DNA of 64,000 bases from a phage: NCBI GenBank assembly GCA_033286805.1, contig GCA_033286805.1_4727.1; one strand, 5' to 3'. Shown one piece after another: positions 11,774-34,705 of the stretch. The position numbers and the translations under genes were made by a program. Every line of letters begins with the position of its first letter. Position 1 is the stretch's first letter. The notes beneath the pieces are model-generated. The model was not told the origin of the DNA. It did not search any database and was given only the letters and a program-made list of their open reading frames with translations.

Positions 11774-14404
11774 TTACAATTCAAAATCTTCATCGATAAC
11801 ACGCTGGGTAAGCACTTTGTCGCTGAAGAACTCCACCTTGCGCTGATGGTATTTACGGTGCGCTTCGATAGAAGTACATACCAGATACCAGAACGTTGGC
11901 GTCATTCCTTCAAACTTCCCTTTCAGCTGACGCAGTCGTCCCAACACCTGAATGTTGCCGGTTCGTGACCCCATCGCTAACGTCATGAACGTCATCACCA
12001 AGTCAGGAAGGTCGATACCGGTACCTGCCGATTTCACGGTTGTAACGCTAATATCGTTATCCAGCAAGACCATGAAATCTTCTTCAGCAGTATAAGGACC
12101 GATCTCTAGCTCAGGAATACGTTCACTGAGATAATGCGACAACGACTTACACATATCAACGGTTGCACAATACACCAGCATCTTCATACCTTCCTGATAC
12201 TGGTTCATAAAACCTTTGATAATAACGGTATAGATGAAGTTAAAGTACGCGAGTTTGAGTTGCTTGTTCTTCATGATAGACTGTTCAAATATCGTGTGCG
12301 AATAAGCTCCACCAAACCCTTTGTATCTGACTTTATCTGTACTGCGTAGTCGATATGTTACCGCATTTACCGCAATGTATTTCTTGTATTCGCCTTTCGC
12401 ATAACGGGCTTCTTTCGGATACATCAAATACAGCATCTGTTCGATAAACGGATCATCGGATACCGCTGTTGCCGACAGATAAATGATTTCCGGAATATTG
12501 GCGTAACACTTGACCTTAAACAAGAAATGCAATGCTTCGTGACACTCGTCATGAATCAGCAAACCTATGCCGGTCTTTTCCCAAAACTCAGCGGGATGGA
12601 AGGCATATGGCGCAACGCAGTTATTCTTCTCGTAGTCCGCAATATAACGTTGGAACATGTTCAAGGAGAACAATGCGATTTTGAAGTCGAGTTCACCCTG
12701 TTCAACCAAGGTTTGAAACTCCAGCATGCTGTAACGAGGAATGTCGGGATGCGGTGGATCCTCCTTAGCGTTCCCGCGTATCTCGATAACATCCCCTGGT
12801 TCCATCCCGAAGAAGTTCAGCAGCGAGCTTCGCCAACCTGGCATATACCGTGGAGAAAGTATAATGCCTGTGCGCACACCCCGTCTAAACACGATTTCCT
12901 GCGACATCGCGGTGTTGTGTGTGACGATAAAGTCTTTCACCACAAACAACGCTGAAGGATCATCGATCGTAATGCAACGTGCATCCGCAACACGGGAAGG
13001 TTTGATTGACAGTACACGCAGCATACTTTCGAAGTATTGTCCGTCGACAGGACAACGTTCCAGCTTCTTCGGAAGTGTAACGATTTCATGTGGACGTTTA
13101 TACCGTATCGTAACCATGTACGCCAATCGTCCCTTATGTCTTTCCCCCTTGTAGGTGTAATACGGTTGTTTAATACGTAGACGAGCATATCCACCGATCG
13201 AACGAACCAAGTAGATAACGTCATCTGAAAGCTGTTTGCTCGAAGTACAGAAAACAATAGATCCGCCTTTATCTACCGTTCCGTCGGTATCGATAAGACC
13301 TGCAAGTATTTCGCAACGCTGTCTATGCGACGCCATCATGTACTGTTTCGGAACAAACTTCTCCCAGGCTCGTTTACCCATCAACCCCAACTGATCAAGC
13401 GCGGATGCTGTCTCCGACCGCCCACCGTAATTGATTAACGTTGCGGCAGGCGTCTTCGTTACCGCATAGTCGTATTTGTCACGGTACTGTATTTCACAGT
13501 CATCAGGAAGACGACTTAACACCTTATTCAAGATGAAATCGTCAGGAGTTGTAATGATTGGAGATGTCGTTAAATGACCGTCCCCTAACAGAACACCAAG
13601 CACGTACGGATCAAGCGGTAAATCTGCATCAGGAGTATCCTCAGACTCACAATACGGAATGTAAAGTCGTTTATTGGACAGCTCCAGGATACGAATCATC
13701 TCAAGTGTATTGATAACCCGCATGGGATAAGGATTGTTTTTGTCCCATCCCCAGTTAGGTCTCATGCACGCCCAGAGATGCTCGCCGCAGGCTTCAACAC
13801 GACGACCGTCAGCAAAGACAATCTCATAGAGCTGTTTTGCTTTATGGTCGAAGATATTGGTTACCTTCGTTGGTCGGCCATTAGCAGCCGTGATGGTATC
13901 ACCTAGCTTCAAATCGCCTAATTGACGCCATCCGCCAGGGACTTTTACGAGCGTGGTAAGCGGATTCGCTTTACCAGACCCCGTTTGAGCGGTGTTTAGG
14001 CTCATTCTGAAGGGGGTATCCTTACCCCCGTTCATGTACTCCAGCCATTCTTGTTGATCTTCACGCCACGGAAACTTCCATTTCTTTACGAACTCCACTT
14101 CCTTACCTGGTACCGGATCGTGATAAACGATTTCCAACCACTCTTTTCGGATTCCTCGAGAGAAGATAAAATCCAAAAACGATTTCAACTGTTCGCGGAG
14201 TAAGTATACCTCGCTATAATCGCTTCTCGCTGCGGCGTAGGTGTTAATGGTATCGGTGACCATTCTCCGTGTACGAGGGTCGCGTCGTTTCCGTAGATGC
14301 AAACAACGGTCTCGAAGGTAATGGCCAATCAAATGGGCAAATCGAAGTCCGTATCCGCTCAGCCTCATGCCATGCGAGAAGACGTCGATACGAGCTAACT
14401 TCAT
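11774..14404 (-). CDS. SF2 DEAH-type helicase interrupted by an intein (876-aa precursor; mature helicase about 524 aa)
   Basis: Extein halves TGSGK / T reconstitute a P-loop GSGKT after removing residues 146-497; downstream DECH box and SAT motif; ATGA overlap with upstream RNAP gene. Confidence 0.75.
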   Translation of the reverse strand: MKLARIDVFSHGMRLSGYGLRFAHLIGHYLRDRCLHLRKRRDPRTRRMVTDTINTYAAARSDYSEVYLLREQLKSFLDFIFSRGIRKEWLEIVYHDPVPGKEVEFVKKWKFPWREDQQEWLEYMNGGKDTPFRMSLNTAQTGSGKANPLTTLVKVPGGWRQLGDLKLGDTITAANGRPTKVTNIFDHKAKQLYEIVFADGRRVEACGEHLWACMRPNWGWDKNNPYPMRVINTLEMIRILELSNKRLYIPYCESEDTPDADLPLDPYVLGVLLGDGHLTTSPIITTPDDFILNKVLSRLPDDCEIQYRDKYDYAVTKTPAATLINYGGRSETASALDQLGLMGKRAWEKFVPKQYMMASHRQRCEILAGLIDTDGTVDKGGSIVFCTSSKQLSDDVIYLVRSIGGYARLRIKQPYYTYKGERHKGRLAYMVTIRYKRPHEIVTLPKKLERCPVDGQYFESMLRVLSIKPSRVADARCITIDDPSALFVVKDFIVTHNTAMSQEIVFRRGVRTGIILSPRYMPGWRSSLLNFFGMEPGDVIEIRGNAKEDPPHPDIPRYSMLEFQTLVEQGELDFKIALFSLNMFQRYIADYEKNNCVAPYAFHPAEFWEKTGIGLLIHDECHEALHFLFKVKCYANIPEIIYLSATAVSDDPFIEQMLYLMYPKEARYAKGEYKKYIAVNAVTYRLRSTDKVRYKGFGGAYSHTIFEQSIMKNKQLKLAYFNFIYTVIIKGFMNQYQEGMKMLVYCATVDMCKSLSHYLSERIPELEIGPYTAEEDFMVLLDNDISVTTVKSAGTGIDLPDLVMTFMTLAMGSRTGNIQVLGRLRQLKGKFEGMTPTFWYLVCTSIEAHRKYHQRKVEFFSDKVLTQRVIDEDFEL
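12914..13969 (-). mobile_element. intein (352 aa) with LAGLIDADG homing endonuclease; class-3-like (Ala1, WCT triad)
   Basis: Hint block A-like N-terminus TLVKVPGG...GD...NGRP; two LAGLIDADG motifs (LGVLLGDGHL, ILAGLIDTDG); C-terminal FIVTHN followed by Thr+1; residue 1 is Ala; Trp in GEHLW, Cys in ARCITIDD and Thr before HN fit the class-3 WCT pattern. Confidence 0.65.
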
Positions 14405-16407
14405 AACGTGATTACATCCTCCGGTTTAGGTTCTTTACGCGGTAAAAGCATGTAGTCGATCGGATGATCCGGCTTCATGGTTGGGATATAACTGTTCGGG
14501 TTTTGGAACGCATCCAGTTGCTCTTGGTGAGCGAACTTCATACTCAAGGAGCGCATGTTCATGTTCTTCTTGAAGGTACTGAAGTATCGTGTTGTTCCCT
14601 GTTTCGGCATGCGATAATCTTTCGTGTGTGGCGAACGAATCATGCTGGCGTAGAGAATAACGTCGAGATGCGAAAGGTTCATTCGCAGACGCTGGGCACA
14701 CAGGCGATGCCAATAATACAGCACGTTTGCAACTTCTTCCGGTGTTGCTTCGTCTTCCGAGAGGAATCCGGCACTGAAAGAACCTTTCCCGAATTTGAAC
14801 TCACGTTCGATTTCTTTTGCGTATTCCATCATGTTTTTGTGGATTAACGGCATCTGGAATAACGTACGTGAATTGTCCCAATGTTTCAAGTCGAAAATCA
14901 CAATCCCGTCAGACGTCACTTCCCAGCTATGGCGTTTAAGATAACGGATAAACGCTTTACTCGGGACGACGGGACGTCCACAGAAATCGAAATTGACTTT
15001 GAGCTTACGATAGCTTTCATCTTTCCTGTCGTAAATCTCCATATCACAAAGCGTCATGTTAAACAGACGTTGCGGTATCAGCGAACTGATTTCTTCCGCT
15101 TCGGCTACATCGTACAACATGTTCGCAAGACCTAACTTCATCTTAATCAGCACGTGTTTACCTTTCAGCTCACGTGCGAGTTTGATGTCGTTCATGTTCT
15201 GGCTGTAGCGAAGGATATGTTGATATTCCGGCGGGATTGGTGCTGTGGATACCGTTGACGAACCATCGTGGTGTTTGGTGGAAAGAATGTTCTGCGTTAC
15301 CTGTTGCGAACAGGTACGCGCTGCGCCATCGCCAACATTATCGGTTAGTGCGAAGTTATGACTTAATTCACCATAACACGTTGTACATACCCCAGCAGGA
15401 TCGGGATGATGACAATAGTTAACGGAGCGCATGCGTACCGTCGTGCCGATCAATTCTTTCATGTGTGGTTGTATAGCTACCAACGAACCGTCATCACGAA
15501 TAATGAATCGACCATGGAAGCCACGCAGGTCGGTCTCATCGCGGATTGGCATCGGGATGGTCTCTTTACTACCACAATCACCAGGATGAAGTCGTTGTAC
15601 AACCGCTGTCGCTATCTGAAGTTCACGACCGAAATATTCAGACTTTTTAATCTGCTCTTTGTTGAACAGCAACGATTTCGCCGCAGAACGACTTTCTTTC
15701 AAGCTGTCGGGAAGAGAGATCAAACCAGCTGCGTATGACCGCATTACTGGATCACGGAATATCTCGGAGTTAATATCAGTCAAGAATCCACGCATCCCAA
15801 TACACTGTAGCACCTGCCCAATCGAAACGTGTTCGGTTCTTACCGCACGTGCAATAGGGTTTGCATGTAACGTTTTATCGGTGCTCAGTACCTTCGTCAG
15901 TTTCTTGTATGCGCTTTCGATACCTTCGCGGGTGGGTTCCGCTTCAGCGATGATTTTCTTAACTTCAGGGTGTACAGTAATCTGATAAAAATCATCCGCA
16001 CAAATAGTTGTTACGTATTCCTCCAACGCATACGTAAAGAAGTTATACACATTGTTAAACATATCGAACAATGCTTTCCAGAGAACCTCGCGATTCTCTT
16101 GTGGGTAAGCATACATACATTGACGATACGCTGCGCTTTGCAACGCAACCGACGAACCAGCAGTAAACTTGCGTTTATCGACCAGGTTCTCTTTTGTCAA
16201 CGGTGTCTCAGGATACATGCGATGCACAGACCAATGCATGTAACTAAAGAAAATGCGTCGCGCACGTAATTCATGAACGCCATCGTCCATCTCGATATAT
16301 ACACGGTCATTAGGCTGTGCCCATTCGAACACCTCATCAACCGGCCAGTGCATAAGCTCGCGTGCCCTCACACGACGTTTCGTGGTGGTCGTCTGTGTTG
16401 TATTCAT
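14401..16407 (-). CDS. multisubunit RNA polymerase beta' subunit, C-terminal fragment (668 aa)
   Basis: AGVCTTCYG matches the beta' GVCAHCYG zinc-binding segment; SQQVTQNILSTKHHDGSS resembles the trigger-loop GTQLTMRTFHIGGA. Confidence 0.65.
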   Translation of the reverse strand: MNTTQTTTTKRRVRARELMHWPVDEVFEWAQPNDRVYIEMDDGVHELRARRIFFSYMHWSVHRMYPETPLTKENLVDKRKFTAGSSVALQSAAYRQCMYAYPQENREVLWKALFDMFNNVYNFFTYALEEYVTTICADDFYQITVHPEVKKIIAEAEPTREGIESAYKKLTKVLSTDKTLHANPIARAVRTEHVSIGQVLQCIGMRGFLTDINSEIFRDPVMRSYAAGLISLPDSLKESRSAAKSLLFNKEQIKKSEYFGRELQIATAVVQRLHPGDCGSKETIPMPIRDETDLRGFHGRFIIRDDGSLVAIQPHMKELIGTTVRMRSVNYCHHPDPAGVCTTCYGELSHNFALTDNVGDGAARTCSQQVTQNILSTKHHDGSSTVSTAPIPPEYQHILRYSQNMNDIKLARELKGKHVLIKMKLGLANMLYDVAEAEEISSLIPQRLFNMTLCDMEIYDRKDESYRKLKVNFDFCGRPVVPSKAFIRYLKRHSWEVTSDGIVIFDLKHWDNSRTLFQMPLIHKNMMEYAKEIEREFKFGKGSFSAGFLSEDEATPEEVANVLYYWHRLCAQRLRMNLSHLDVILYASMIRSPHTKDYRMPKQGTTRYFSTFKKNMNMRSLSMKFAHQEQLDAFQNPNSYIPTMKPDHPIDYMLLPRKEPKPEDVITL

Positions 16408-16505
16408 TATTGCTTTCCGATTTAAATGGTTTTATCATACGGTTTACCAAATCCGTTGGACTTTACTATCGTTGTGATAGCATCGGGAATCCCTTCCCTT
16501 AGGTT

Positions 16506-16530
16506 ATGTAGGTGTTAATATATCTCCACT
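16506..16530 (-). promoter_or_regulatory. degenerate variant of the early-promoter-like motif
   Basis: taggtgttaatatatctcc; about 110 nt upstream of the beta' C-fragment start. Confidence 0.2.
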
Positions 16531-16552
16531 GCTGGCCTTTATGTCGGCAGCA

Positions 16553-17038
16553 TTATCCAGCTTTCTGTTGTAAAGCGTATGGATCCATAGCGTCAGACAT
16601 ATCCGCAAAAACGGTGAGAATAAACCCCTTTATCTGTCTCACCTCGGTTACACGAAGCCCTTTATCATTGCGATATACGTTTTCTTCACCGACCAACTTT
16701 GGTCGAATAACATAAACTCCATCAACAAGCGGGAATGTCGGATACGGATAAATACCGATACGAATGATGTTTGGGTGATCGCCTAGAAGGTCACGTCCAA
16801 ACTTATCGACTCGACCATAAATCGCCCCATCCACACCTTCCACTTCAATGAGATCGTTTCGAATATCCTGAAATAGCTGCTCTAACGTGTCGGCGGGGTA
16901 CGTATATGCGACACCTAACGCTGGATCCTCAATGGTTTTGACACTGAATCCGTTAAGCCAAACAATCTGTTCATCCGCCCATGTTTCTTCATATACCGTT
17001 AATCCATCGCCGTATATGTTGGCGTGTGCTATCTCCAT
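16553..17038 (-). CDS. hypothetical protein (161 aa)
   Basis: ORF bounded by terminator-like hairpins. Confidence 0.5.
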   Translation of the reverse strand: MEIAHANIYGDGLTVYEETWADEQIVWLNGFSVKTIEDPALGVAYTYPADTLEQLFQDIRNDLIEVEGVDGAIYGRVDKFGRDLLGDHPNIIRIGIYPYPTFPLVDGVYVIRPKLVGEENVYRNDKGLRVTEVRQIKGFILTVFADMSDAMDPYALQQKAG

Positions 17039-17152
17039 AATCTCATTTCCTCTTATACGTTAGGATAGATGACATGTTGGATATACGTTGCCTTTGCATA
17101 TATTGCTTTATTTCCGTCAGAAATAACGGAAAATAAAAACAACGACATAATT

Positions 17153-17182
17153 CCCTCCCACCTCCACATGGGAGAGGGAGGG
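17153..17182 (-). terminator. hairpin terminator (ccctccc / gggaggg)
   Basis: GC stem followed on minus sense by ATTATGTCG and a T-rich run. Confidence 0.45.
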
Positions 17183-17195
17183 TTATTCGTGTTTA

Positions 17196-17558
17196 TTATT
17201 CTACGCTGTCTTCTTCCGTATCTTCCTCTTCGGAACCATCGAATGTTTTCATTGTGACGGTGGTATCCCAGTTAGCCGCGTAATCAGCCATCGCTTCACG
17301 CAGCGCTTCTTCACCAGCATCACCAGCCAGGTCAAGTACAACCAAACCCTGTGCGACGTTTTGAGCAACGGTATCAATAACGGTTGCATCTTCTTCAAAA
17401 CTACGTACGGGTTCAATGGTACCTACATCAACAGCGTAGTTCGTGGTTGCTGTAAACACGGCGACTTGTAGCGCATTGCTATCTTCATCATGCAGTGCTG
17501 CTTCAATACCGATCGGACGAGCCAGTTCTTGTAGTGTTAATTTGCGAATTAAGTTCAT
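17196..17558 (-). CDS. hypothetical acidic protein (120 aa)
   Basis: ORF with Asp/Glu-rich C-terminal tail. Confidence 0.5.
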   Translation of the reverse strand: MNLIRKLTLQELARPIGIEAALHDEDSNALQVAVFTATTNYAVDVGTIEPVRSFEEDATVIDTVAQNVAQGLVVLDLAGDAGEEALREAMADYAANWDTTVTMKTFDGSEEEDTEEDSVE

Positions 17559-17590
17559 TATGTTTTCCTCAGGTGAATGTTAGCAATCGT

Positions 17591-18016
17591 TTAAAACTTT
17601 AAAACTTTTTCGATACGATGGTTGACGAGTTCATTGAACGACTCTTCAGCTTGTTCGATGATTTCATCAACGTCGATATCTAATTGTTGGGGTTGGATAA
17701 CATGCTCTTTCATGGTTTCCAGCCAGTATTCGGCTTTAATCATGACGTTAGCGACGTGTTCGACCTGGCTGCGTATGTCGACGATCTGGCAGTCAGGATT
17801 GTTAATATCGATGATGTGTCCGTGGTGGTTGATAAAACCTAGCTTATTTGATGCCCTTACCGCATCGCGGGTAAGTTCTTGCAAGATTAAATTATTAACG
17901 TAGTTCACTGCTACGGAACGATTTTCGTTATCACTCATACCAGGGATCCTCTTTAAGTCATCACATTCTAGTGTTAAGCAGTTAAAATAAACCGTTCCTT
18001 TTATCAGCATAAACAT
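17591..18016 (-). CDS. hypothetical protein (141 aa)
   Basis: ORF between hairpins. Confidence 0.5.
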   Translation of the reverse strand: MFMLIKGTVYFNCLTLECDDLKRIPGMSDNENRSVAVNYVNNLILQELTRDAVRASNKLGFINHHGHIIDINNPDCQIVDIRSQVEHVANVMIKAEYWLETMKEHVIQPQQLDIDVDEIIEQAEESFNELVNHRIEKVLKF

Positions 18017-18045
18017 CCTCCTCCCACCACATGGGTAGGAGGAGG
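18017..18045 (-). terminator. hairpin terminator (cctcctcc / ggaggagg)
   Basis: 8-bp stem followed on minus sense by TTTATGCTG. Confidence 0.45.
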
Positions 18046-18056
18046 CGTAATATGCA

Positions 18057-18467
18057 TCAGAAAGGAGGACGATCTTTAAATTCTAGCAACGTGTCTTCGA
18101 AGCAAGCGATGAGTTCAGACTGCAATTCGGTACGGCCTTGTTCACCGAAGAGTTCCAGCAACATTAACCCCCGAGCGGTCTTCGTAGCAACCTCTTCGCA
18201 GATGCGGAGATCGCGAACTTCATCATCGCCGACATCTTTACGTAACTGCGCTGCAATGGGCTTAAGATTACCGTTTTCATCGTGTTCGTCACGAAATGCA
18301 TCATAAGCCGCATCGATGTTCGCGATCCGTGTCAACCCTTCAGAATCCCGCCAGTCTCGATATAATCCAAGCAGACGGTTATGATTCTTCGTTTTGACGT
18401 TCGGTGCTGGAAGGTTGCGCAACAGATGTGGTGTAATCATTGCTATCACGCTATCCGAATGATCCAT
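18057..18467 (-). CDS. hypothetical protein (136 aa)
   Basis: ORF. Confidence 0.5.
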   Translation of the reverse strand: MDHSDSVIAMITPHLLRNLPAPNVKTKNHNRLLGLYRDWRDSEGLTRIANIDAAYDAFRDEHDENGNLKPIAAQLRKDVGDDEVRDLRICEEVATKTARGLMLLELFGEQGRTELQSELIACFEDTLLEFKDRPPF

Positions 18468-18478
18468 CGTATACCTCG

Positions 18479-20647: not shown

Positions 20648-20678
20648 AGGACTTCCTATTATCGAATTGAGGTACGTC

Positions 20679-21032: not shown

Positions 21033-21037
21033 GATAA

Positions 21038-25658: not shown

Positions 25659-25682
25659 CACAAAGGTAATATAAGCGTGAAT
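25659..25682 (-). promoter_or_regulatory. early-promoter-like motif (minus-sense ATTCACGCTTATATTACCTTTGTG)
   Basis: Same motif, 58 nt upstream of ATG 25608. Confidence 0.5.
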
Positions 25683-25812
25683 AATTTTGGATTCCGGCTG
25701 AGTTATCGCTCAGCATGCAAGGCATCCCGCCGAAGCGAGACACCTTGCACTAACGGAAAATATTCGCGTTACCTTCTGAATCGAAGACTCAGAATGCGAT
25801 ACTAAAGCATCA

Positions 25813-26601: not shown

Positions 26602-26674
26602 TTTCAGCCTCGTTACGTAGTGTGAATCAATTTCTGGTTCAGATGATAGTTAATATTAGTTAAAAATTACAGCC

Positions 26675-27472
26675 TCAGCGGAACATGTCCAACAGAAAAC
26701 GTTTTGCAAAGGGGTCACGTAACTGGTTGACGCCAAAGCGCGTACGGTCTTCCGTTGTTAATGGATTCCACTGACTCTGTTTCGCAAGATCTAACAGCAT
26801 CCTTTTTATTTTCACCGGCCCACTGTTAAACTGTACGGCTTGGTCACCGAACGTTCCCAAGGTCATCTTTGTAAATGGAAGATTCGCAACCTCTGGACGA
26901 TCCCCACCAGTAAGTTTAGTCGACCACTGATGTTTTCGTTTCAAGGTTCCGGTATGGCTCTCTACCAAAATAAGTTCACCAAAACCGGTTCTTGCCAACA
27001 AGTCAGAAACATAGTGCGTGGTGATATACGATGTCTTGGTTATCGCGGGTAATTTACAATCCATCGATTCGATATTAGGGAGTCGATCTACAGACGCCAT
27101 TAACCCACGATAAAGTGTCGCGAGTCCTTTTTGTTTTTCGGTGTGTGGCTCCTTATGTATAGCGTGCGGATAAACACGCTTTATTGATGCGTAGGTTGGC
27201 GCATATATCCGCAAGCGAATATGAGGAACGAGTTCATTCACCAGCTGCCTTAGCTGCAGTAATTCGTTTTGAAAATCCCCCGTTATCGTCGACAACGGTA
27301 ATTTATGTTGTTCAACGTCTTCAAAGCTTTCAACGAAATTGCGTGCTAAAGTACGCAGGTTGAACAACCAATCCATCGGTGTTTCTGGCTGTTGCTGCAC
27401 TGCGGATAGTGTTGCTGATGTCCCTACCGATAAAGGATAATCACCTAACGTGCGGGCGTACATATCGCTCAT
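26675..27472 (-). CDS. hypothetical protein (about 265 aa)
   Basis: Track start is TTG at 27508; first ATG with AAGGAG SD is at 27472. Confidence 0.5.
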   Translation of the reverse strand: MSDMYARTLGDYPLSVGTSATLSAVQQQPETPMDWLFNLRTLARNFVESFEDVEQHKLPLSTITGDFQNELLQLRQLVNELVPHIRLRIYAPTYASIKRVYPHAIHKEPHTEKQKGLATLYRGLMASVDRLPNIESMDCKLPAITKTSYITTHYVSDLLARTGFGELILVESHTGTLKRKHQWSTKLTGGDRPEVANLPFTKMTLGTFGDQAVQFNSGPVKIKRMLLDLAKQSQWNPLTTEDRTRFGVNQLRDPFAKRFLLDMFR

Positions 27473-27491
27473 ACCCCACAACTCCTTCTTA

Positions 27492-28634
27492 TCATGGCAA
27501 CGTATCAAGCCAAGCAGAAACCTTTAAGGCGTCAACGTTCGGGTATTTATTACGGATGCGTTCAACCAACAAACGCTTAACGTTGTCCTTTGTCAAGTCC
27601 CCACCTTTCTCGATAACGTTATTGACAAAACTGTTCTTTAATAGCGACTGGTTGTTCTTGGCATCCGTTTTAATTGACCAGACAAAGCCCGGATACAAAG
27701 AAGGGATAGAACGAAACGTTTTCGCTGCGTCGTCTTCCTTATCGCAGCGTATTCGAATATGATCGCCCTTCTTCAATGGAGCCAATTCCCGTTCCAACAC
27801 ACGGACAATTTCATCTCCAACAAGACCATGCAGTTTTATCGTCTTATAGACATCTGCTTTCTTGTTCTCAACAAATTCCCACTGGTCGTTAAACGATTCT
27901 GTTAACGTATAACGGAGATACCCCTTTGGACCTTCTTCGCCATGCGCCAAGCGACCAAACGAACCGCCAACCATGATACGTCCTTTCTGGGATTGTAAGT
28001 GGATATGCCCGCTCACAATCCATCCCTGGGTCTTCTCTACCATTGAGTTATACGCATCACTGCTATGAACACATGTTGCTTTTAACGCTTCTGGTGGAAG
28101 CTGATATTCAAACGCACCGTGCATCAGAATGAAGTCTGGCGATCCCTTCTCATCAATAAGTCGGTTCACGGCCGACAACGTCACATCCGGATCGTGGCTG
28201 TAGTTATCTGGAAGATAAAGCACTTTTAAACCAAAGTCTTCATCAACCATGCAGAGGTCATCGTAATAACGAACTTTCGCTCCTATCTCCATGACCTCGT
28301 TCTGTTCAACGAACCACTGACTTTGCTTCTGGTCGTGTAAATTGGTACCCTCAAGAAAGATCAACGTAATATCGTGTTTTCTCGCATACCGTAACAACCA
28401 GGTACCCCAGGCACGAACAGCAACCACATCACTCGTCACAAATGTCGTAATACGATCGAAGACATCGCCACTGAACGTAATCACATCAAGCAGCGCAGGA
28501 TCTTCTTTTGTAATGTAATAACGCAGTTGGCTAATCAGGTTTACTGTCGGTGTTTGACGATGGATAAAGTGAATATCCGACAAATTGATTCCACGTAATA
28601 CCCCAGGCGTTTTATTTCGACTGAAGTCTCGCAT
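27492..28634 (-). CDS. Mre11/SbcD-like metallophosphoesterase nuclease (380 aa)
   Basis: Ordered phosphoesterase motifs DIHF, GDVFD, GTNLHD, H, GHIH. Confidence 0.6.
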   Translation of the reverse strand: MRDFSRNKTPGVLRGINLSDIHFIHRQTPTVNLISQLRYYITKEDPALLDVITFSGDVFDRITTFVTSDVVAVRAWGTWLLRYARKHDITLIFLEGTNLHDQKQSQWFVEQNEVMEIGAKVRYYDDLCMVDEDFGLKVLYLPDNYSHDPDVTLSAVNRLIDEKGSPDFILMHGAFEYQLPPEALKATCVHSSDAYNSMVEKTQGWIVSGHIHLQSQKGRIMVGGSFGRLAHGEEGPKGYLRYTLTESFNDQWEFVENKKADVYKTIKLHGLVGDEIVRVLERELAPLKKGDHIRIRCDKEDDAAKTFRSIPSLYPGFVWSIKTDAKNNQSLLKNSFVNNVIEKGGDLTKDNVKRLLVERIRNKYPNVDALKVSAWLDTLP

Positions 28635-29416
28635 CAGAATTCCTCTAGGTTGCTGCTGCTAATAGTCCCCGTCGTAGACGGCATGTTTCTACTGCTCGCT
28701 GACGCAGTTGTTGAAGAAGTTCTGGCTAGATTCAATCCATTTAATAACCCACGCTCTTTTACTGTACGACGTGAACCATCACGAACGTCGTAAAGGGGTA
28801 CGTTATAATGGTCAAAAATCCGAAGCCATTGCACGTAATCAGCAACAACATGGTCTTTGCTTTCATTCGGGGCAAAGCGATCAAGCTGATGGTCGACGTA
28901 AGCTTTAGCGCTTTCAGGATTGAAGTTATACTGTCGACGTGCTTTGTCCACCATCGCGAGGAAACACGTGTTGGGGTCACGATTGATGTATGAACGCGTC
29001 CTGATAAAGATAGCCGGTACCGTAAACAGAACCTTGTTGTTATTCCCATCAGCAACGATGTTAACCGCACGATGTGGTTGGCCTGCTATCTTGCACCAAT
29101 CGTGAACAATGGTGCTATTACTCAGCATCTCCGCGTATTCAGGATCCTGCGAAAACATTCCTGCGAACGGATACAAGAAATGTTTAACAAACAGCGACTC
29201 AGGCAGGATGTTGGGACGCGTCATCTCCTGTAAACCTTTTCGTAGAAGCTCGCTGTTGTCTACCAGCTCCTGCCACATGTCCGGTCGTGTTTTCGGGATG
29301 GACGGATCCTGAGCGCGGCGAATGCGCTCTTCCTCATTTACAACCACTACCCCAGCCGGATACCCCAATAAATCCGTTCCTTCGCTAACGTTGCTGTTAG
29401 TTTGGCGCGCCTTCAT
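28634..29416 (-). CDS. hypothetical protein (260 aa)
   Basis: ORF; stop overlaps start of 27492..28634. Confidence 0.55.
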   Translation of the reverse strand: MKARQTNSNVSEGTDLLGYPAGVVVVNEEERIRRAQDPSIPKTRPDMWQELVDNSELLRKGLQEMTRPNILPESLFVKHFLYPFAGMFSQDPEYAEMLSNSTIVHDWCKIAGQPHRAVNIVADGNNNKVLFTVPAIFIRTRSYINRDPNTCFLAMVDKARRQYNFNPESAKAYVDHQLDRFAPNESKDHVVADYVQWLRIFDHYNVPLYDVRDGSRRTVKERGLLNGLNLARTSSTTASASSRNMPSTTGTISSSNLEEF

Positions 29417-29804
29417 TTACTTCCTCCTGCCACTTGATAAAATTACCACGCTCGGATCGCAGAACACCGCCCAAATCGTACGATATACCTTTCTCTGTGA
29501 CAATCCCACCAATCTGGAGATCAACACGTTCCGTCGTCGGATCGATATACTTGACACGGACTTTCAATTCCACGCGATCGTAATAACGCATTAAATAATC
29601 ATACAACATCCGGTATGTCGCATCTTCCAATTTGGGTGCGCTATACTGCGATGTTGCAATGAGGTACGGTAGTGAAACGATAGAGCCTTGGTAGCAATAC
29701 GACTGGGAATAATTCGATATTGCAAAATTGGTCATTAATCCATCCAGCTTTTTTCCCGACGCGGTTAAAAAGCTCGACAGTCCCGGTAACGGATTCGATG
29801 CCAT
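29397..29804 (-). CDS. hypothetical protein (135 aa)
   Basis: ORF. Confidence 0.5.
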   Translation of the reverse strand: MASNPLPGLSSFLTASGKKLDGLMTNFAISNYSQSYCYQGSIVSLPYLIATSQYSAPKLEDATYRMLYDYLMRYYDRVELKVRVKYIDPTTERVDLQIGGIVTEKGISYDLGGVLRSERGNFIKWQEEVNEGAPN

Positions 29805-29817
29805 GAGGAACTCCTCT

Positions 29818-30291
29818 TTAAGCGTAATTCATTCCAACCAATCTATCGTAGTTAGGCATATGCCCTAACTCCAGTTCGACGGGCATGGATACATTGGTGC
29901 GTGGCGCGTAAAATGTTCGCGTATGCATATCGATATACCCACAGTCCAAATAAACAATATCGGACAACTCCGCTGGATGTTTAGGTGCGGGAATCTTTAA
30001 GCGATTGTAACACTCAAGCTGCCACCAGGCATGAAAAAAGTTATTGTAGGCGTACGATTTACTGTTGGCAACTTTAAGTCCGTAGATCACCCATAACGCC
30101 GCCATGAAGTTGGTCGCGTTAATTCGCATCGGTTGTTCATTATTGAGCATGTGCGTGTAGGTAAACAACGGTGTGTTACCATCACCGAAACGTCCGACTA
30201 AGGTATTGTTCGTGTGTTCGACCTCAAAGGAAAAATGCTGGCTGCTATTGCCATCAAAATGGATCATTCCGTTCTCCTCAAGCTTTTTCAT
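29818..30291 (-). CDS. hypothetical protein (about 157 aa)
   Basis: Track start 30357 lies inside the terminator hairpin; start moved to ATG 30291 (MKKLEENG). Confidence 0.45.
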   Translation of the reverse strand: MKKLEENGMIHFDGNSSQHFSFEVEHTNNTLVGRFGDGNTPLFTYTHMLNNEQPMRINATNFMAALWVIYGLKVANSKSYAYNNFFHAWWQLECYNRLKIPAPKHPAELSDIVYLDCGYIDMHTRTFYAPRTNVSMPVELELGHMPNYDRLVGMNYA

Positions 30292-30351
30292 TTCATAGAG
30301 TGGTGGAAATTCGTAGAAAGTTACAAAAATAAAAAAGAATGGGCAGCCCCT

Positions 30352-30369
30352 CCCCACCCGAAGGTAGGG
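30352..30369 (-). terminator. hairpin terminator with UUCG tetraloop
   Basis: minus-sense ccctacc-ttcg-ggtgggg (one U-G wobble), T-run 12 nt downstream. Confidence 0.45.
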
Positions 30370-30386
30370 AGAGACCGCAAATATAC

Positions 30387-30851
30387 TTAAACCAAAGCTG
30401 CGATAACGTCGTTAACATTACGGCCTCGCAACTCTGCCGCTAAACGAATAACCTCATCCAGGGAACGGTTTGTACGAATCTTGGCCACTTTCCAATTTTC
30501 AGGATACTGTTCGAAGTTAAGCAACCAAGTCATTACCTTTGCTTGTTCCATACCGTTGAGTTTGATTGTCGTGCGCGGATTGGCTTTGAACCACTTCTTG
30601 CTCAGCTGCGCCATACGGCGAACAGGGTAAGCGTAAGCGCGAGTCCAGTCTTTGGACAGATTGTCGAGTAATTCACGGTAGCTGCTGTCGTAGTCTTTGT
30701 TGATACGACGTAATAACCAGTTGGCGGTCATCTGGTAAAGTTTATCATCTTCACGTAACCGCATACCCGCTACTGCTAAATAAATGATAAGACCTGCGCC
30801 CAGGATGAGAGACAGGATAAACAGAATTTGGGTTTCTTGTGCTAAAGTCAT
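30387..30851 (-). CDS. small membrane-anchored protein (154 aa), early-promoter-driven
   Basis: N-terminal hydrophobic helix ILFILSLILGAGLIIYLAVAGM; promoter-like motif 94 nt upstream. Confidence 0.55.
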   Translation of the reverse strand: MTLAQETQILFILSLILGAGLIIYLAVAGMRLREDDKLYQMTANWLLRRINKDYDSSYRELLDNLSKDWTRAYAYPVRRMAQLSKKWFKANPRTTIKLNGMEQAKVMTWLLNFEQYPENWKVAKIRTNRSLDEVIRLAAELRGRNVNDVIAALV

Positions 30852-30937
30852 TTTATTATCCTCGGATTTCGTTAGGATTTAATTTCCAATATAAGGGCAA
30901 TGTGATATGCCTTATACAGTCGATTGATGTTGTACAT

Positions 30938-30961
30938 CACTTAAGTAATATAGCCGTGAAA
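30938..30961 (-). promoter_or_regulatory. early-promoter-like motif (minus-sense TTTCACGGCTATATTACTTAAGTG)
   Basis: Same motif, 94 nt upstream of the membrane-protein gene. Confidence 0.5.
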
Positions 30962-30970
30962 AATGTTGGA

Positions 30971-31768
30971 TTAACGTGTTCTCCTATCACGATGCGTATA
31001 CGACTGAAGACCGATGTCCATATGCGGTAACGTCAGCGTCTGCCAGATCTGTCGTGCGTAGCGATCGAGCGTATGATCATCAGTAACACAATCGACGGGT
31101 TCGATGAGGTGAGTCGTATACTGGCTTTTCTCAGAGAAAGGTTCGATGTTAGCTGTATCTCCTAATCCGCTTTTCACCGTGAAGACAAGACGTGTGACTA
31201 TCATCGCCTTATGTTGCTGTTCGTTATAACGAAGGCTGCGGTATACGGCATAGCTTCCTCCTTTTAGGCTTCGGGTATAACGAAGGTCGGAGGTCGTCTC
31301 GGAAATCTGATACAGCATCCAGTCCAACGTATCACGCCAGTACGCATCATCCACATCAGGAACCGTGATACCGTATCGCGTAGGCAGCAGTTCTAAAAGC
31401 AATTTATAAAGTCCGCGACGCAGACCATGCTCTTCTGTTTCCGATAAACCGTTTCCAACGTAACGTGAAATACGCGTACGTAAATACGTACGGATGAACA
31501 TATTCGCCATCAGTGTTTTCACTCTGCTACTTGTATCCTCAAAGCGATCAACGCTGAAACTCGTTTCAATCAGCCGTCCATTAAAATACAATGCGGCAAC
31601 ATACATCGCGTTATTGCTATCACGTTCAATGTTTAAACGACCGCAGATATTGGCTGCGTCGTTCATGGTAAATTCTAATTTATCGTGTTCGATACGATAG
31701 ATAATATCCTCTTGGGTTGCCAGGCTCGCAATGCGACGGTAGCCCGGAGAAGTACGTTTTACACTCAT
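30971..31768 (-). CDS. hypothetical protein (about 265 aa)
   Basis: Track ATG at 31807 is the ATG inside the terminator tail TTTATGCCG; ATG 31768 has GAGGA SD. Confidence 0.5.
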   Translation of the reverse strand: MSVKRTSPGYRRIASLATQEDIIYRIEHDKLEFTMNDAANICGRLNIERDSNNAMYVAALYFNGRLIETSFSVDRFEDTSSRVKTLMANMFIRTYLRTRISRYVGNGLSETEEHGLRRGLYKLLLELLPTRYGITVPDVDDAYWRDTLDWMLYQISETTSDLRYTRSLKGGSYAVYRSLRYNEQQHKAMIVTRLVFTVKSGLGDTANIEPFSEKSQYTTHLIEPVDCVTDDHTLDRYARQIWQTLTLPHMDIGLQSYTHRDRRTR

Positions 31769-31810
31769 GATTGTCCTCGTTTTCAATTTTAAGATTGCAT
31801 GCGGCATAAA

Positions 31811-31835
31811 CCCTCCCCGCCTTATGCAGGGAGGG
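31811..31835 (-). terminator. hairpin terminator with TTTATGCCG tail
   Basis: ccctccc / gggaggg stem. Confidence 0.55.
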
Positions 31836-31850
31836 TAGCCATTAAATGGA

Positions 31851-32489
31851 TTAACCTAATTTACCACCGGCGATGTTGGTGAAATCTTCGCCATCAGGAA
31901 CTTGCAGTAGGATACGTGCCATGTCCCAGTTGGTTAATGTAATTGCTTTATCATCGATACTCAGTTCTGGTAGGTCGAGTTCATGATCATCAAACTCGTA
32001 GGAAATACTCCACGTTTCGTCTGTTTTAGGATCGGTTATCAACACACCGTCTGTTACACGCATGTAGTCCGGATGCAATTCATTACTGAATGTGCTGAAC
32101 GGATCGGTGTAACACTCAGCATACCCCTCGATCTGCTGACGCTGTGCCTTCGTACGTAATTCAGGGCACGCCATGATCAGTTGTCGAGATATGCCGTTTG
32201 CAGCACGGAAGTCTTCCACGGTGTTACATGGCATAACCACATCGTCATGGAAGATGTTCTCCGATTGTCTCAGCAAAGTCTTACGGAGTTCAGCATAGTT
32301 TATCTGATTGAATGCATCGAACGTTGCTAACGATTCAGCGTAAAAATGCTTTACGTGTTCGCTCGCGCCGCCGAGGCTATTCATCAACTTGTGTCCATAC
32401 TCCATGAAGCTTTTATCGAGACCGGAGGACATTTCTCCGAACCTCAGTGCACGATAACTGTCTCGTCCACCTGTAAATATTTGCGCCAT
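31851..32489 (-). CDS. hypothetical protein (212 aa)
   Basis: ORF; protein-like composition. Confidence 0.55.
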   Translation of the reverse strand: MAQIFTGGRDSYRALRFGEMSSGLDKSFMEYGHKLMNSLGGASEHVKHFYAESLATFDAFNQINYAELRKTLLRQSENIFHDDVVMPCNTVEDFRAANGISRQLIMACPELRTKAQRQQIEGYAECYTDPFSTFSNELHPDYMRVTDGVLITDPKTDETWSISYEFDDHELDLPELSIDDKAITLTNWDMARILLQVPDGEDFTNIAGGKLG

Positions 32490-32504
32490 TACAGGCGTCC
32501 TCCT

Positions 32505-32741
32505 TTAGCAATGGTTGTTAGTTGCTTCTATTTCGTCAAGATAAGGTTCTACGTCATCGCCCTCCACGAATTCGTTGAACCAACAGTCAATGGTAGAAAT
32601 AACCGGTGACTGGTGTTCACATTTCTTAGATACCTTAAAAGGTACGTTATTATCCATCATACCGAGTTCGGGTCGGAATCTCCCGAAATGTTTCGCAGTC
32701 CAAATGTCTGGGACGATATGGTTGTTCATCAATATCTTCAA
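32505..32741 (-). CDS. small hypothetical protein (78 aa), doubtful
   Basis: TTG start in track, no convincing SD; abuts tandem structured element A. Confidence 0.3.
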   Translation of the reverse strand: MKILMNNHIVPDIWTAKHFGRFRPELGMMDNNVPFKVSKKCEHQSPVISTIDCWFNEFVEGDDVEPYLDEIEATNNHC

Positions 32742-32749
32742 TACGAATC

Positions 32750-33122
32750 GCTACTTCGTATCCGCAGCATTACCTGCAGCTCCTGGTGTTACCAGGATGT
32801 TGAGAGTATATCATGTCCATATTCCAAATGGAACGTAGGACTTCCGCGCTGGATCTCGCTTGAGACCGCTTACTCGTTGAACGTTCTCCTAAACGGAGCT
32901 TCGCTGCTGATTGGACATTGTTACGTACGGTAGGCGTCCCATTAAAGGGATTTTCATTGAAGCCGCGTACATCCGTTACCTTGTTTCTACCTTATCGGTT
33001 CCTCTTACGAGGCGTAACGGCTTTAGCCTATTCCAGCAATTCACGGAATGCATATTCTCCTTTTCAGGAGATAAGGCCATGGCTCTGGCATCACCGTCAA
33101 AGTCCACGTATCTTCAGTATGG
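32750..33122. repeat. structured element A (about 373 nt), unit 1 of a diverged tandem pair
   Basis: Shares collinear conserved blocks with unit B (ccgcagcattacctgcagctcctggtgttaccagga, gctgctgattg, ccttatcgg, ggctttagcc, cagcaattcacggaat); no ORF above 61 aa. Confidence 0.6.
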
Positions 33123-33480
33123 TTCGCTACTCCATACCCGCAGCATTACCTGCAGCTCCTGGTGTTACCAGGACGGAGAGATCATCTCATCACCCACGAA
33201 GGGTGTTCCGCGCTACCCTCAGCGAATTCGAGGGACATGATCGTTGAACCTTCCACCGATAATCGGCGGCTAGGCTGCTGATTGAACATTGTACGTTGGG
33301 GTGGCATCCTGGTGCAGGACTGTCGTTGAAGCCTCCCAACATCCACTCACTTATTTCCGCCTTATCGGCTCCCACAAGGGCAGAGTGGCTTTAGCCCGTC
33401 TCAGCAATTCACGGAATTCAAGCTCTTCCTTTCGGAAGGCAGGGCCTCATTTGAAGCGTTGTATCCCTTAAGGATCATCA
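33123..33480. repeat. structured element B (about 358 nt), unit 2 of the tandem pair; overlaps last ~26 codons of the beta' N gene
   Basis: Collinear with unit A; stems differ by compensatory changes (aggc/gcct vs gggc/gccc; tctcc/ggaga vs cttcc/ggaag). Confidence 0.6.
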
Positions 33481-34705
33481 CGCTTAACCCGATGGTGTTA
33501 TCCTGCGGATCGCGTTTAACCTTGGTGATTTCAAGACATTGGTTACTGCTTCGGTCAAGTGATGGGTTTCGAACAAAGCCGCACACAATCCCATCGAACG
33601 GTGTATCAGCAATAAGCTCATCGTGCAGCTCGCTCATCATCGGATGATAATTACGGACATGTTCCGCAACGAACGCACGTGCCGCTCTTGGCGAATAACC
33701 ACGATGGAATAACTTGGATTGGATATGTTCTTTATTGGTTAAAGTAAATGGTGCGTATGGGAAATGCAGATGATAATAACGATGGTTCGCTGTTATCGAA
33801 CTGATTACAGTACGCGTGGTGAATGGATGTAATGTACCTAATATGTTTTTACGTGTGATACCTTTCTTCTTACCGATGAACTCATCGAAAATTGCTGCGT
33901 GGTATTGCAGTAGCTTCAGTTGTACTTTCGCCATCCAGTTTTCTTTCTTTCTGGCGCTCAAAGGTGTTGTTGGGTGATAGATACTATTCAACGTACCGAT
34001 AGCATCGATCGCACCTTCCATTTTGCTATCTGCATAACGACCGGTCGGCGTATTTTCGATAACGAACATCATGGCCGCAGGAAAGCTGATATACTGACTG
34101 AAGAACTTATCACGATGGATACGGATGAATTCTCGTAGCGTGTCAACTTTCTCCGTGTTCTTCGGTCCACGTAACGTGGGTCCTTTATACAAGATCTCCA
34201 TGATACGATCGAAGTTCTGTATAAAGCTATTTACGCCACGTCGTATCCCGAATGCATCAAATTGCTGCTCTAGATAGTTCTTGAGTTCAATGGGTCGTTT
34301 TACATTTGGACGGTAACTGGCATCAATGAGCCACGTCATCGTTTCAAAGCTTTTGATATTCAACTCGCTTGCCAGCACGAGATGGACCAACGGGTTAATG
34401 AACGCATCGATTCCTTCAGGGACACGCGCCCAGACCGTCGAACGAATCTCTTGTTCTGCTGGGTAGGTTACAACCGTTTTACAGTTTGGACACACCGTGC
34501 CGAGTAGCTCACCACGATTGTAGAAACCACAACCACATTGTGGTGTGATATCCAACGTATCGCTGGAGTAAACACGGGTGATAAAACTGTTTAATTTCTT
34601 CTTCTCTTCGACGACTTTTGTATCGTAATCATTCAACAAAATCGGCGTAAAAGGAAGTTCTGCGAGCTGTCTATCGAAACTCACGATATCGAGCATGATG
34701 GCCAT
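33401..34705 (-). CDS. multisubunit RNA polymerase beta' subunit, N-terminal fragment (434 aa)
   Basis: CGCGFY...CPNCKTVV matches the beta' N-terminal zinc finger; GTLHPFTTRTVISS resembles GKRVDYSGRSVITV; EHVRNYHPMM...IVCGFV resembles EVIREHPVLL...LVCAAY; ORF ends where NADFDGD would follow. Confidence 0.65.
   Translation of the reverse strand: MAIMLDIVSFDRQLAELPFTPILLNDYDTKVVEEKKKLNSFITRVYSSDTLDITPQCGCGFYNRGELLGTVCPNCKTVVTYPAEQEIRSTVWARVPEGIDAFINPLVHLVLASELNIKSFETMTWLIDASYRPNVKRPIELKNYLEQQFDAFGIRRGVNSFIQNFDRIMEILYKGPTLRGPKNTEKVDTLREFIRIHRDKFFSQYISFPAAMMFVIENTPTGRYADSKMEGAIDAIGTLNSIYHPTTPLSARKKENWMAKVQLKLLQYHAAIFDEFIGKKKGITRKNILGTLHPFTTRTVISSITANHRYYHLHFPYAPFTLTNKEHIQSKLFHRGYSPRAARAFVAEHVRNYHPMMSELHDELIADTPFDGIVCGFVRNPSLDRSSNQCLEITKVKRDPQDNTIGLSVMILKGYNASNEALPSERKSLNSVNC

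Follow-up and report, generated by a model that had tools for sequence, protein, structure and literature searches.

Two ORF-less group I introns probably bracket an 18-nt micro-exon for the catalytic aspartates of a jumbo phage RNA polymerase

In the phage DNA analysed here, the gene for the β′ N-terminal subunit of a phiKZ-type non-virion RNA polymerase (nvRNAP) is very probably interrupted twice by related group I introns without an open reading frame (ORF), which bracket a micro-exon encoding DFDGDA; splicing would yield a 497-aa subunit. The Mg2+-binding aspartate triad is located on this 18-nt exon, between the two interruptions of the gp55-like gene, and the NADFDGD Mg2+-binding loop (residues 416-422) is present only once the three exons are joined. 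The elements of the locus, as predicted within the 64-kb window (the whole stretch of DNA that was analysed), are the following:

34798..36693, minus strand: chimallin, the nuclear shell protein (Pfam PF25677, E 1.3e-27)
33455..34705, minus strand: exon 1, nvRNAP β′ N-terminal subunit (phiKZ gp55 orthologue), 417 codons, ending ...ILKGYNA (AAC GCU)
33105..33454, minus strand: intron W1, 350 nt, ORF-less group I (full-length RF00028 match, 26.4 bits)
33087..33104, minus strand: micro-exon, 18 nt, GAC UUU GAC GGU GAU GCC = DFDGDA (residues 418-423)
32730..33086, minus strand: intron W2, 357 nt, ORF-less group I (full-length RF00028 match, 28 bits)
32505..32729, minus strand: exon 3, 74 codons and stop codon, MNNHIVPD...NNHC

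Non-virion RNA polymerase genes in the window

The window shares 96.9% nucleotide identity with the E. coli jumbo phage Goslar and appears to be a portion of the genome of a Goslar-like chimallivirus, a nucleus-forming jumbo phage. Three of its ORFs had been labeled in a preliminary description as pieces of a split multisubunit RNA polymerase. This label is correct, and the enzyme is the known phiKZ-type nvRNAP: PDB searches match the ORFs to phiKZ gp74, gp71-73, and gp55, and PHROG RNA polymerase families agree, with E-values of 1e-131 to 1e-180 for the three products (the gp55-like one as spliced). By these matches the three ORFs are true subunits, and the window carries four of the five nvRNAP genes. 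The β′ N/C and β N/C splits are gene-level divisions and a separate matter from the introns. The genes other than the gp55-like one are:

14401..16407, minus strand: nvRNAP β′ C-terminal subunit (phiKZ gp74 orthologue), uninterrupted (PDB 7OGP_D, E 1.3e-86, phmmer; phrog_3015, E 4.7e-170)
18479..20647, minus strand: nvRNAP β C-terminal subunit (phiKZ gp71-73 orthologue) with the second DPBB, uninterrupted (PDB 7OGP_C, E 6.1e-86, phmmer; phrog_3295, E 1.5e-180)
24022..25743, minus strand: nvRNAP sigma-like, fifth subunit (phiKZ gp68 orthologue; PDB 9RJS_B and 7OGP_B, E 4.6e-28, residues 68-563)

The gp68 orthologue, absent from the list in the preliminary description, has a start annotated in Goslar that corresponds to about 25608. 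The ORF at 22434..24020 was considered as a gp68 homologue and rejected, as it has no PDB match and 24022..25743 takes that role. The gp71-73-like ORF shows a weak Pfam Rpb2_6 match; it can be extended to an ATG at 20812, and the start annotated in Goslar is equivalent to 20647. Pfam returned no match for the gp74-like ORF or for the raw 434-aa gp55-like ORF, for which PDB and PHROG searches were needed. PHROG scans covering 39 ORFs of the window, comprising nearly all those of at least 250 aa and a few shorter ones, returned no orthologue of gp123 (β N); for the DNA polymerase and chimallin, identification came from Pfam instead. Chimallin adjoins the gp55-like gene in the order of phiKZ gp54-gp55, the gene order at this locus being equal to that of phiKZ, and this neighbor therefore marks the adjoining gene as the gp55 orthologue.

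Three predicted exons give a complete gp55-like subunit

The preliminary description had equated IVCGFV/RNPSLDRSSNQ in the 434-aa ORF with LVCAAY/NADFDGD, and had suggested that the catalytic loop lies on a subunit outside the window or that the gene is interrupted at that point. Alignment to phiKZ gp55 and 15 homologues instead places RNPSLDRSSNQ at the invariant R-N-P-x-L motif (NRxPxLH), upstream of the catalytic loop. Homology runs 38 residues past it, to ...SVMILKGYNA, and true divergence starts after codon 417 (33455/33454), 114 nt 3′ of the point first proposed. Despite the earlier statement that no DFDGD occurs elsewhere in the window, a six-frame regular-expression search of the 64 kb for D[FYWLIMV]DGD yields a single match, located at 33104..33090 (minus strand), on the same strand as the 434-aa ORF and 297 nt downstream of its stop. 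The loop is encoded inside the window, in frame after the predicted splicing. The suspected interruption does exist, but there are two (33455/33454 and 33087/33086) rather than one at about 33568.

The exon-joined product (34705..32505) has 497 aa and reads ...ILKGYNA-DFDGDA-MNNHIVPD... through the joins. It matches phiKZ gp55 (7OGP_A, phmmer against PDB) with an E-value of 1.6e-73 over residues 21-475, and phrog_2987 with an E-value of 2.3e-131 over residues 1-473 of 478 profile positions. Moreover, it aligns gap-free to phiKZ gp55 and to the intron-less homologues P0002 and P0003, the 18-nt micro-exon giving a gap-free fit to “YNADFDGDAMNHH” of P0002. DFDGD occupies residues 418-422, matching the 417-DFDGD-421 carried by phiKZ GP55 (PMC7618050), and N416, A417, and D418 show almost no variation (at least 90% conservation) among 16 aligned sequences, truncated ORFs included. 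Exon 1 is 99.8% identical in amino acids to Goslar, and exon 3 appears in the Goslar annotation as “gp185,” a hypothetical protein.

The two-intron and micro-exon arrangement is common to the 12 independent near-complete genomes compared, of 235-241 kb each. Among them, exon 1 has 83 variable sites, almost all at codon position 3, and the micro-exon is identical in all 12; it differs from Goslar and from the relative L002 at five positions, all third positions and all synonymous. The exons are under purifying selection.

Fold and splice sites of the two introns

Within the 64 kb, no Rfam match other than W1 and W2 reaches E < 0.05, and both of these alignments span positions 1-253 of the 253-position model. 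Their E-values are 2.6e-4 locally and 0.012 over the whole window for W1, and 8.9e-5 and 0.004 for W2. Both scores (26.4 and 28.0 bits) are below the RF00028 gathering threshold of 50 bits, at which Rfam reports no RNA in the window, and the introns appear only under E-value thresholds. Among related introns, that of phiKZ gene 55 scores 75.6 bits, and intron A of Goslar and of L002 scores 46.9-47 bits. The MFE z-scores are -2.43 for W1 and -3.25 for W2.

RNAalifold applied to W1, W2, Goslar B, and L002 B, with P7 added manually, recovers P1-P9 with 104 pairs. In this alignment 98.5% of cells are paired, compared to 37-42% in slid controls, and both-side changes occur in 32 of the 104 pairs, compared to 9.3 ± 2.5 in shuffles and 1-2 in slid controls. 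These include the P7 pseudoknot, which varies as GAUCA with UGAUC, GAGUA with UACUC, and GAAUA with UAUUC. Covariation thus backs a conserved P3-P4-P5-P6 plus P7-P8 core with a P3/P7 pseudoknot, and the 32 compensatory pairs between W1 and W2/B imply that selection maintains the ribozyme fold. Paired changes are also seen among the 12 genomes in the P9.2 hairpin of W2.

W1 and W2 have an identical stretch of 42 nt in common and belong to the same group I family, of which nhmmer with the intron alignment matched no other member in the window. Neither intron contains a homing endonuclease ORF: within 32730..33454, the coding strand stays free of stops for at most 73 codons, and no minus-strand ORF reaches 80 aa. 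By blastn against the phage collection, Goslar is the only close relative of the introns. The core motif TTCCGTGAATTGCTG, tried as a family tracer, is shared by a wide range of viral group I introns (120+ contigs) and is therefore not useful for tracing this family.

The boundaries are fixed because intron-less alleles read contiguously: the W1 site is empty in Goslar and L002 (AAT GCC GAC TT, i.e., AAT GCN GAY TT), and the W2 site is empty in L133 (GAC GCA ATG AAC). P1 sets the splice site exactly after GCU in W1, where GCU/UC (slashes mark splice sites) is paired with GAGGC and a U.G pair stands at the splice site, and exactly after GCC in W2, where GCC/A is paired with UGGC and C-G takes the place of the usual U.G. 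Both introns end in a terminal G (...GAUACGUG/GAC for W1 and ...GAUAUUG/AUG for W2). The W2 guide sequence, CAUGGC, is fully complementary to GCC/AUG, the sequence of the ligated exons; W1 has no obvious contiguous P10 pairing. W2 and Goslar intron B are orthologues, 84% identical overall and 87% identical outside the first 37 nt. The C-G pair of W2 is fixed in all 12 genomes examined, while U.G stands at the aligned position in its orthologues, introns B of Goslar and L002. In model introns, the first step of splicing is slower when C-G replaces U.G at the 5′ splice site; W2 presumably works despite its C-G pair.

Each intron would excise itself from the pre-mRNA by two transesterifications, in which a guanosine attacks the P1 splice site and the exons are then ligated after the terminal G. 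The predicted junctions are AACGCU/GACUUU and GAUGCC/AUGAAC, and the predicted tryptic peptide of the joined nvRNAP subunit is GYNADFDGDAMNNHIVPDIWTAK. Judging from these features, splicing at W1 and W2 probably occurs and is likely autocatalytic. Points against this model include the sub-threshold Rfam scores, the C-G pair of W2, and the lack of an obvious contiguous P10 pairing in W1. The phiKZ long-read transcriptome, with no spliced reads at the gp56, gp72, and gp179 introns (PMC10914365), also counts against it.

Alternative readings of the locus

Decay of the locus would mean that splicing of at least one of the two introns has been lost, or that the 725-nt block is removed with exon skipping, leaving this gp55 copy a pseudogene or inactive. 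The Rfam scores below threshold, the C-G pair of W2, and the absence of a homing endonuclease ORF are compatible with this, and the 42-nt identity between W1 and W2 could promote mis-pairing or deletion. However, this phage family has no middle/late transcriptase other than nvRNAP (PMC7618050), in line with what is known of phiKZ; the arrangement is kept in 12 independent near-complete genomes, the exon 1 variation is almost all synonymous with an unchanged micro-exon, and the compensatory pairs point to a ribozyme fold under selection. We consider decay very improbable.

Equally slim are the chances of a 15-nt micro-exon, in which the W2 5′ splice site would follow GAU and the product (...DFDGD-MNNH...) would have one residue fewer. 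It would keep the reading frame and provide the canonical U at position -1, but that U faces C in the only P1 helix able to form, and the guide sequence offers no G to pair with it. Furthermore, a single residue (A, E, or Q) separates DFDGD from [ML]N in 15 of 15 full-length homologues, the natural intron-less allele of L133 carries GCA between GAC and ATG, and the position aligned in Goslar B and L002 B is GCU/ with its U.G pair. Neither spliced sequence, of 497 or 496 aa, occurs as an exact match in a collection of 15 billion proteins.

Finally, the idea that the 434-aa ORF is the complete subunit and that the NADFDGD loop lies on another polypeptide outside the window can be set aside almost with certainty: although the ORF is reported by gene callers, exists as an NCBI protein, and occurs in 151 blocks of the protein collection, DFDGD follows on the same strand 297 nt downstream, the last 17 residues of the ORF (SNEALPSERKSLNSVNC) are read-through into W1 with no counterpart in any homologue, the phiKZ motif is on GP55 itself (PMC7618050), and exon 3 extends the gp55 homology to residue 475.

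Implications of the double-intron arrangement

In gene-caller output and in the Goslar annotation, this essential subunit appears as two separate products, a truncated “hypothetical protein” and an orphan of 80 aa, and the three-exon join is needed for proteomic, structural, and phylogenetic use of the Goslar-like nvRNAP. With splicing as proposed here, a multisubunit RNA polymerase would have its aspartate triad encoded on an 18-nt exon, and expression of the triad would depend on two independent ribozyme reactions, one of them with a non-canonical C-G pair at the splice site.

Relatives carry other intron sets, with six insertion points within about 30 nt and one to three introns per allele at the catalytic-loop codons, counts that leave out the truncated homologues L127-L130, whose contigs end soon after an HNH gene. 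A speculative reading, which we regard as rather unlikely, is that in Goslar-like phages introns contend for these codons as a “landing strip.” W1 would have arisen by transfer of a P1-P2 guide module of the B family to a diverged core, retargeting the ribozyme to an upstream ...CGCU/ site, either through reverse splicing directed by the guide sequence or through recombination of one intron with the other. With ORF-less introns stacked 5 nt before and 13 nt after the insertion point of intron A, the HNH endonuclease of a Goslar-type intron A would lose its target, and, if so, the stacked introns would confer immunity in co-infection. The same 30 nt with different intron combinations in near-identical phages offers a natural, tractable system (E. 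coli host, known competing HNH) in which to follow how ORF-less introns spread, how guide sequences are retargeted, and how introns mediate phage competition in viruses whose transcription is separated from translation.

Comparison with known systems

A double intron or micro-exon in Goslar-like phages is not described in the literature searched, most subscription-journal papers lying outside that search. In phiKZ (gene 55, gp56 HNH, and gp56.1), a group I intron likewise lies in the nvRNAP β′ N gene beside chimallin, and the PDB chain named PHIKZ055 + PHIKZ056.1 is the spliced product. That intron is inserted at AAU/GCU (N/ADFDGD), 3 nt upstream of the W1 site, and by eye, unaligned, its 3′ domain looks similar to that of W1 and W2 (P9.1 ...GCUGCACGUAAUGGUGCGG, then the P9.2 hairpin followed by CUGAA). 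However, phiKZ has one intron with an HNH homing endonuclease and DFDGD in a long 3′ exon, whereas here two ORF-less introns flank an 18-nt exon.

Goslar (vB_EcoM_Goslar, NC_048170; gp247, Intron_gpI, gp186 HNH, and gp185) has exons 99.8% identical in amino acids to those of the window. Its intron B occupies the W2 site with U.G at the splice site, but it is without W1 and carries an unrelated 1440-nt intron A with an HNH endonuclease 5 nt further 3′ (GACTT/C). The extra 1.08 kb in Goslar is the gp186 HNH gene of intron A, a different intron from W1 and W2. The Goslar record annotates only the intron A core, leaving out intron B and the true CDS join.

Similarly, the group I intron of PhiPA3 gp210 directly follows the conserved catalytic aspartates of a chimallivirus RNA polymerase subunit; unlike the present case, it is a single intron in the virion RNA polymerase β-like gene and encodes an HNH endonuclease, which acts in phage-phage competition (Birkholz et al. 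2024, PMC11620839).

The C-G pair replacing the conserved U.G in W2 resembles the C.G at the 5′ splice site of natural group I introns that Hur and Waring are said to have described in 1995, reportedly in fungal mitochondria. Multi-intron phage genes (Twort orf142 and nrdE; T4 td, nrdB, and sunY) likewise place several self-splicing group I introns, some of them ORF-less, in a single essential gene; similarly, the metagenomic contig L007 has four introns in about 1.8 kb. The present locus differs from these in that the exon between introns is only 18 nt long (the introns of L002 being separated by 13-nt exons) and encodes the catalytic triad.

The split RNA polymerase and its phage

Interval 14000..35000 of the window matched only Escherichia phage vB_EcoM_Goslar (megablast; 96.9% identity, query coverage 99%), a chimallivirus, or nucleus-forming jumbo phage. 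The window, Goslar and phiKZ share a gene order in which chimallin and the beta' N fragment are followed, further on, by gp68-, gp71-73- and gp74-like genes and the helicase. The preliminary description had recognized three RNA polymerase fragments, and this assignment is borne out by PDB matches, with which the RNA polymerase families of PHROG concur:

Window genes matching subunits of the phiKZ non-virion RNA polymerase
34705..32505, minus strand: gp55 match of the joined product (PDB 7OGP_A, E 1.6e-73)
24022..25743, minus strand: gp68 orthologue (E 4.6e-28)
18479..20647, minus strand: gp71-73 match (PDB 7OGP_C, E 6.1e-86)
14401..16407, minus strand: gp74 match (PDB 7OGP_D, E 1.3e-86)

In the phiKZ enzyme, gp55 is beta' N, gp74 is beta' C, gp71-73 is beta C with the second DPBB, GP123 contributes the beta lobe and the fifth subunit, GP68, resembles sigma (PMC7618050). 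The split polymerase is a known enzyme and ordinary for this phage family. PHROG scans of 39 window ORFs (nearly all of at least 250 aa) returned no further polymerase piece, so the gp123 orthologue probably lies outside the window. The gp71-73-like ORF (18479..20812, minus strand) is uninterrupted, unlike its phiKZ orthologue, into which the gp72 intron is inserted. Starting at 20812 it would encode 777 aa and at 20647, the start annotated in Goslar, 722 aa; PHROG similarity sets in at residue 24 of the 722-aa form.

The catalytic segment lies between two group I introns

The catalytic beta' segment, reported as missing, is present; two introns account for its apparent absence, an artefact of annotation and reading. 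Despite the earlier statement that the window holds no DFDGD, a six-frame regular expression search located a single occurrence at 33104..33090 on the minus strand. Similarly, RNPSLDRSSNQ does not stand in place of NADFDGD: in alignments to phiKZ gp55 and 15 database homologues it falls on the R-N-P-x-L motif, which is invariant, precedes the catalytic loop and reads NRAPTLHRLGIQ in E. coli. In the same alignments, the homology of the 434-aa ORF extends to ...IGLSVMILKGYNA, after which 17 unrelated codons precede a stop. A database entry from the assembly of an E. coli isolate (235-kb contig) has exactly this ORF's product, and a near-identical ORF occurs in 151 blocks of the protein collection.

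Predicted structure of the gp55-like gene downstream of exon 1
33454..33105, minus strand: intron W1
33104..33087, minus strand: micro-exon encoding DFDGDA
33086..32730, minus strand: intron W2
32729..32505, minus strand: exon 3

Direct repeats spaced about 370 nt apart in 32730..33454 (82 nt at 84% identity, plus three more) indicate that this interval holds two related elements. Both aligned over the full length of RF00028, the group I intron model, at 28.0 and 26.4 bits, below its gathering score of 50 bits (local E 9e-5 and 3e-4, cmscan), and they were the only matches with E<0.05 when the whole window was scanned with all 4227 families. Neither has room for an endonuclease gene. From an alignment of W1, W2, Goslar intron B and the same intron in L002 (a Logan contig), RNAalifold independently recovered P1, P2, P3, P4-P6, P8, P9, P9.1 and P9.2. 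With P7 put in as a pseudoknot, 98.5% of cells were paired, versus 37-42% with partners slid by 1-3 columns, and both-sided changes affected 32 of 104 pairs, a count that was 9.3 +/- 2.5 for shuffles and 1-2 for slid controls. Since W1 and W2 share only 66% identity, they are old paralogues and the covariation is real. Single-sequence folds gave z-scores of -2.4 and -3.3.

Splice junctions and the length of the micro-exon

In W1, exon GCU and intron UC pair with GAGGC in P1, which sets the U.G pair exactly after AAC GCU (N-A), and the intron ends in a G directly before GAC UUU. Where W1 is absent the sequence is contiguous, AAT GCC GAC TT in Goslar and AAT GCA GAT TT in L002. In W2, the aligned splice-site position in P1 is the C of GAU GCC, the guide CAUGGC is exactly complementary to the ligated GCC/AUG, and a terminal G directly precedes AUG AAC. 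A metagenomic allele (L133, ENA scaffold, 1..560) carries W1 and an empty W2 site, reading GAC TTT GAC GGC GAC GCA ATG AAC. Because of the W2 P1 and guide pairing and this allele, the predicted micro-exon is 18 nt long and encodes DFDGDA. A 15-nt micro-exon was rejected, as the P1 position, the guide and L133 all place the junction after 18 nt.

The resulting 497-aa product aligns without gaps to its closest intron-less homologues (P0002, ...YNADFDGDAMNHH...; P0003, ...YNADFDGDEMNNH...). DFDGD occupies residues 418-422, and residues 417-421 in phiKZ GP55 (PMC7618050). The spliced subunit would yield the junction-spanning tryptic peptide GYNADFDGDAMNNHIVPDIWTAK.

The C-G pair of W2 occupies a position that is almost always U.G in group I introns, and U.G is kept there in the Goslar and L002 orthologues of W2. 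The C is fixed in 12 of 12 genomes. C-G slows the first splicing step of model introns; a natural precedent for C-G at the splice site was reportedly described by Hur and Waring in 1995.

Constraint on the gene and possible exchange between the introns

The same layout and an identical micro-exon occur in eleven further near-complete genomes (235-241 kb, different samples). Variable sites among the 12 number 83 in exon 1 (nearly all of them third codon positions), 23 in W1, 19 in W2 and zero in the micro-exon; in the P9.2 hairpin of W2, two base pairs are substituted on both sides, A-U becoming G-C and C-G becoming U-A. Comparing the micro-exons of the window, Goslar and L002 gives five differences, each of them synonymous. 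Such variation is what would be expected of an expressed, spliced gene rather than a pseudogene.

W1 is 84% identical to Goslar intron B over its first 37 nt (P1 guide strand and P2) and 63% beyond them, whereas W2 shows the opposite, 54% followed by 87%. W1 follows AACGCU, and Goslar B follows GACGCU. This mosaic would fit a swap of the specificity module between paralogous introns, together with an insertion steered by the guide to another ...CGCU site. W1 and W2 agree at 30 of 30 columns in P9/P9.1, and the identity of this block suggests that gene conversion between them may be ongoing. Their direct repeats (about 370 bp apart, 32730..33454) include a 42-nt identical stretch; homologous recombination between W1 and W2 would remove the exon for DFDGDA, an outcome expected to be lethal.

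An intron hot spot in the catalytic loop

Among phages, six different intron positions fall within the 30 nt encoding G-Y-N-A-D-F-D-G-D-A-M:

Intron positions in the catalytic loop (slash, insertion point)
GGG T/AT: intron X, L002
AAT/GCT: intron of phiKZ (with HNH) and KpGz_1 (without HNH)
GCT/GAC: intron W1, window
GAC TT/C: intron A, Goslar (with HNH) and L002 (without HNH)
GAC GGT/: intron of pEa_SNUABM_54, then a 335-aa ORF
GCY/ATG: intron B/W2

In the near-identical phage L002 (Logan SRR5130533_29614, 1468..2590), two 13-nt exons, ATAATGCAGATTT and CGACGGGGATGCT, lie between the three group I introns X (366 nt), A (376 nt, lacking HNH) and B (355 nt). Over its 3'-terminal 35 nt, intron X is almost identical to the end of W1, although the two cores differ. 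A protein homologue, P0060, has yet another read-through sequence, ILKG/STLICNFV. With this read-through and the W1-only allele L133, Goslar-like phages have at least five allele types in circulation.

Most sequenced chimalliviruses have an uninterrupted gene (259 of 290 records). About 15 of 53 gp55-family clusters (P0016-P0048) end in or just after NADFDGD (after NAD, DFD, DFDG or DFDGD), P0037 ends in the RNPSL motif, and those neighbouring ORFs that were checked encode HNH endonucleases. Intron-interrupted catalytic loops appear widespread and systematically mis-called. The Goslar record annotates one Intron_gpI at this locus:

Features of the Goslar record (NC_048170)
22724..23078, minus strand: unannotated intron B
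22499..22738: gp185, 80 aa, 'hypothetical', predicted exon 3 of the beta' N subunit
24516..25787: gp247 CDS, extending into intron A

This reference annotation is incomplete, and the true beta' N CDS is predicted to be a three-part join.

The helicase and terminase genes

The helicase ORF (11774..14404, minus strand) encodes 876 aa, versus 524 aa in Goslar gp164, and carries a 352-aa insertion (approximately 12914..13969) exactly within the Walker A motif (TGSGK/ANPL...IVTHN/TAMSQE). Because of its LAGLIDADG/Hom_end Pfam matches, C-terminal HN and +1 Thr, it is identified as an intein with a homing endonuclease; it begins with Ala, not Cys or Ser. The terminase large subunit ORF (53335..55566, minus strand; 743 aa) is covered by PHROG terminase profiles only at residues 9-212, and either the remainder has diverged strongly or something else is present in it.

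Comparison with known systems

On an unrelated viral contig (L007, IMGVR_UViG_3300031689_000283, 2318..4084, minus strand), what is apparently a gene for a capsid-like structural protein holds four group I introns with strong scores (83-91 bits) in roughly 1.8 kb, and several also occur on the contigs L038 (three) and L080 (two); close stacking is therefore not unique to the gp55-like locus. Our literature search, whose coverage was incomplete, found no account of the paired ORF-less introns, catalytic micro-exon, C-G splice site or multi-site polymorphism seen at this locus. Group I introns are known in chimallivirus RNA polymerase genes, namely phiKZ gp56, gp72 and gp179 (PMC10914365) and PhiPA3 gp210 (PMC11620839), and the phiKZ GP55 chain in the PDB is already the spliced PHIKZ055 + PHIKZ056.1.
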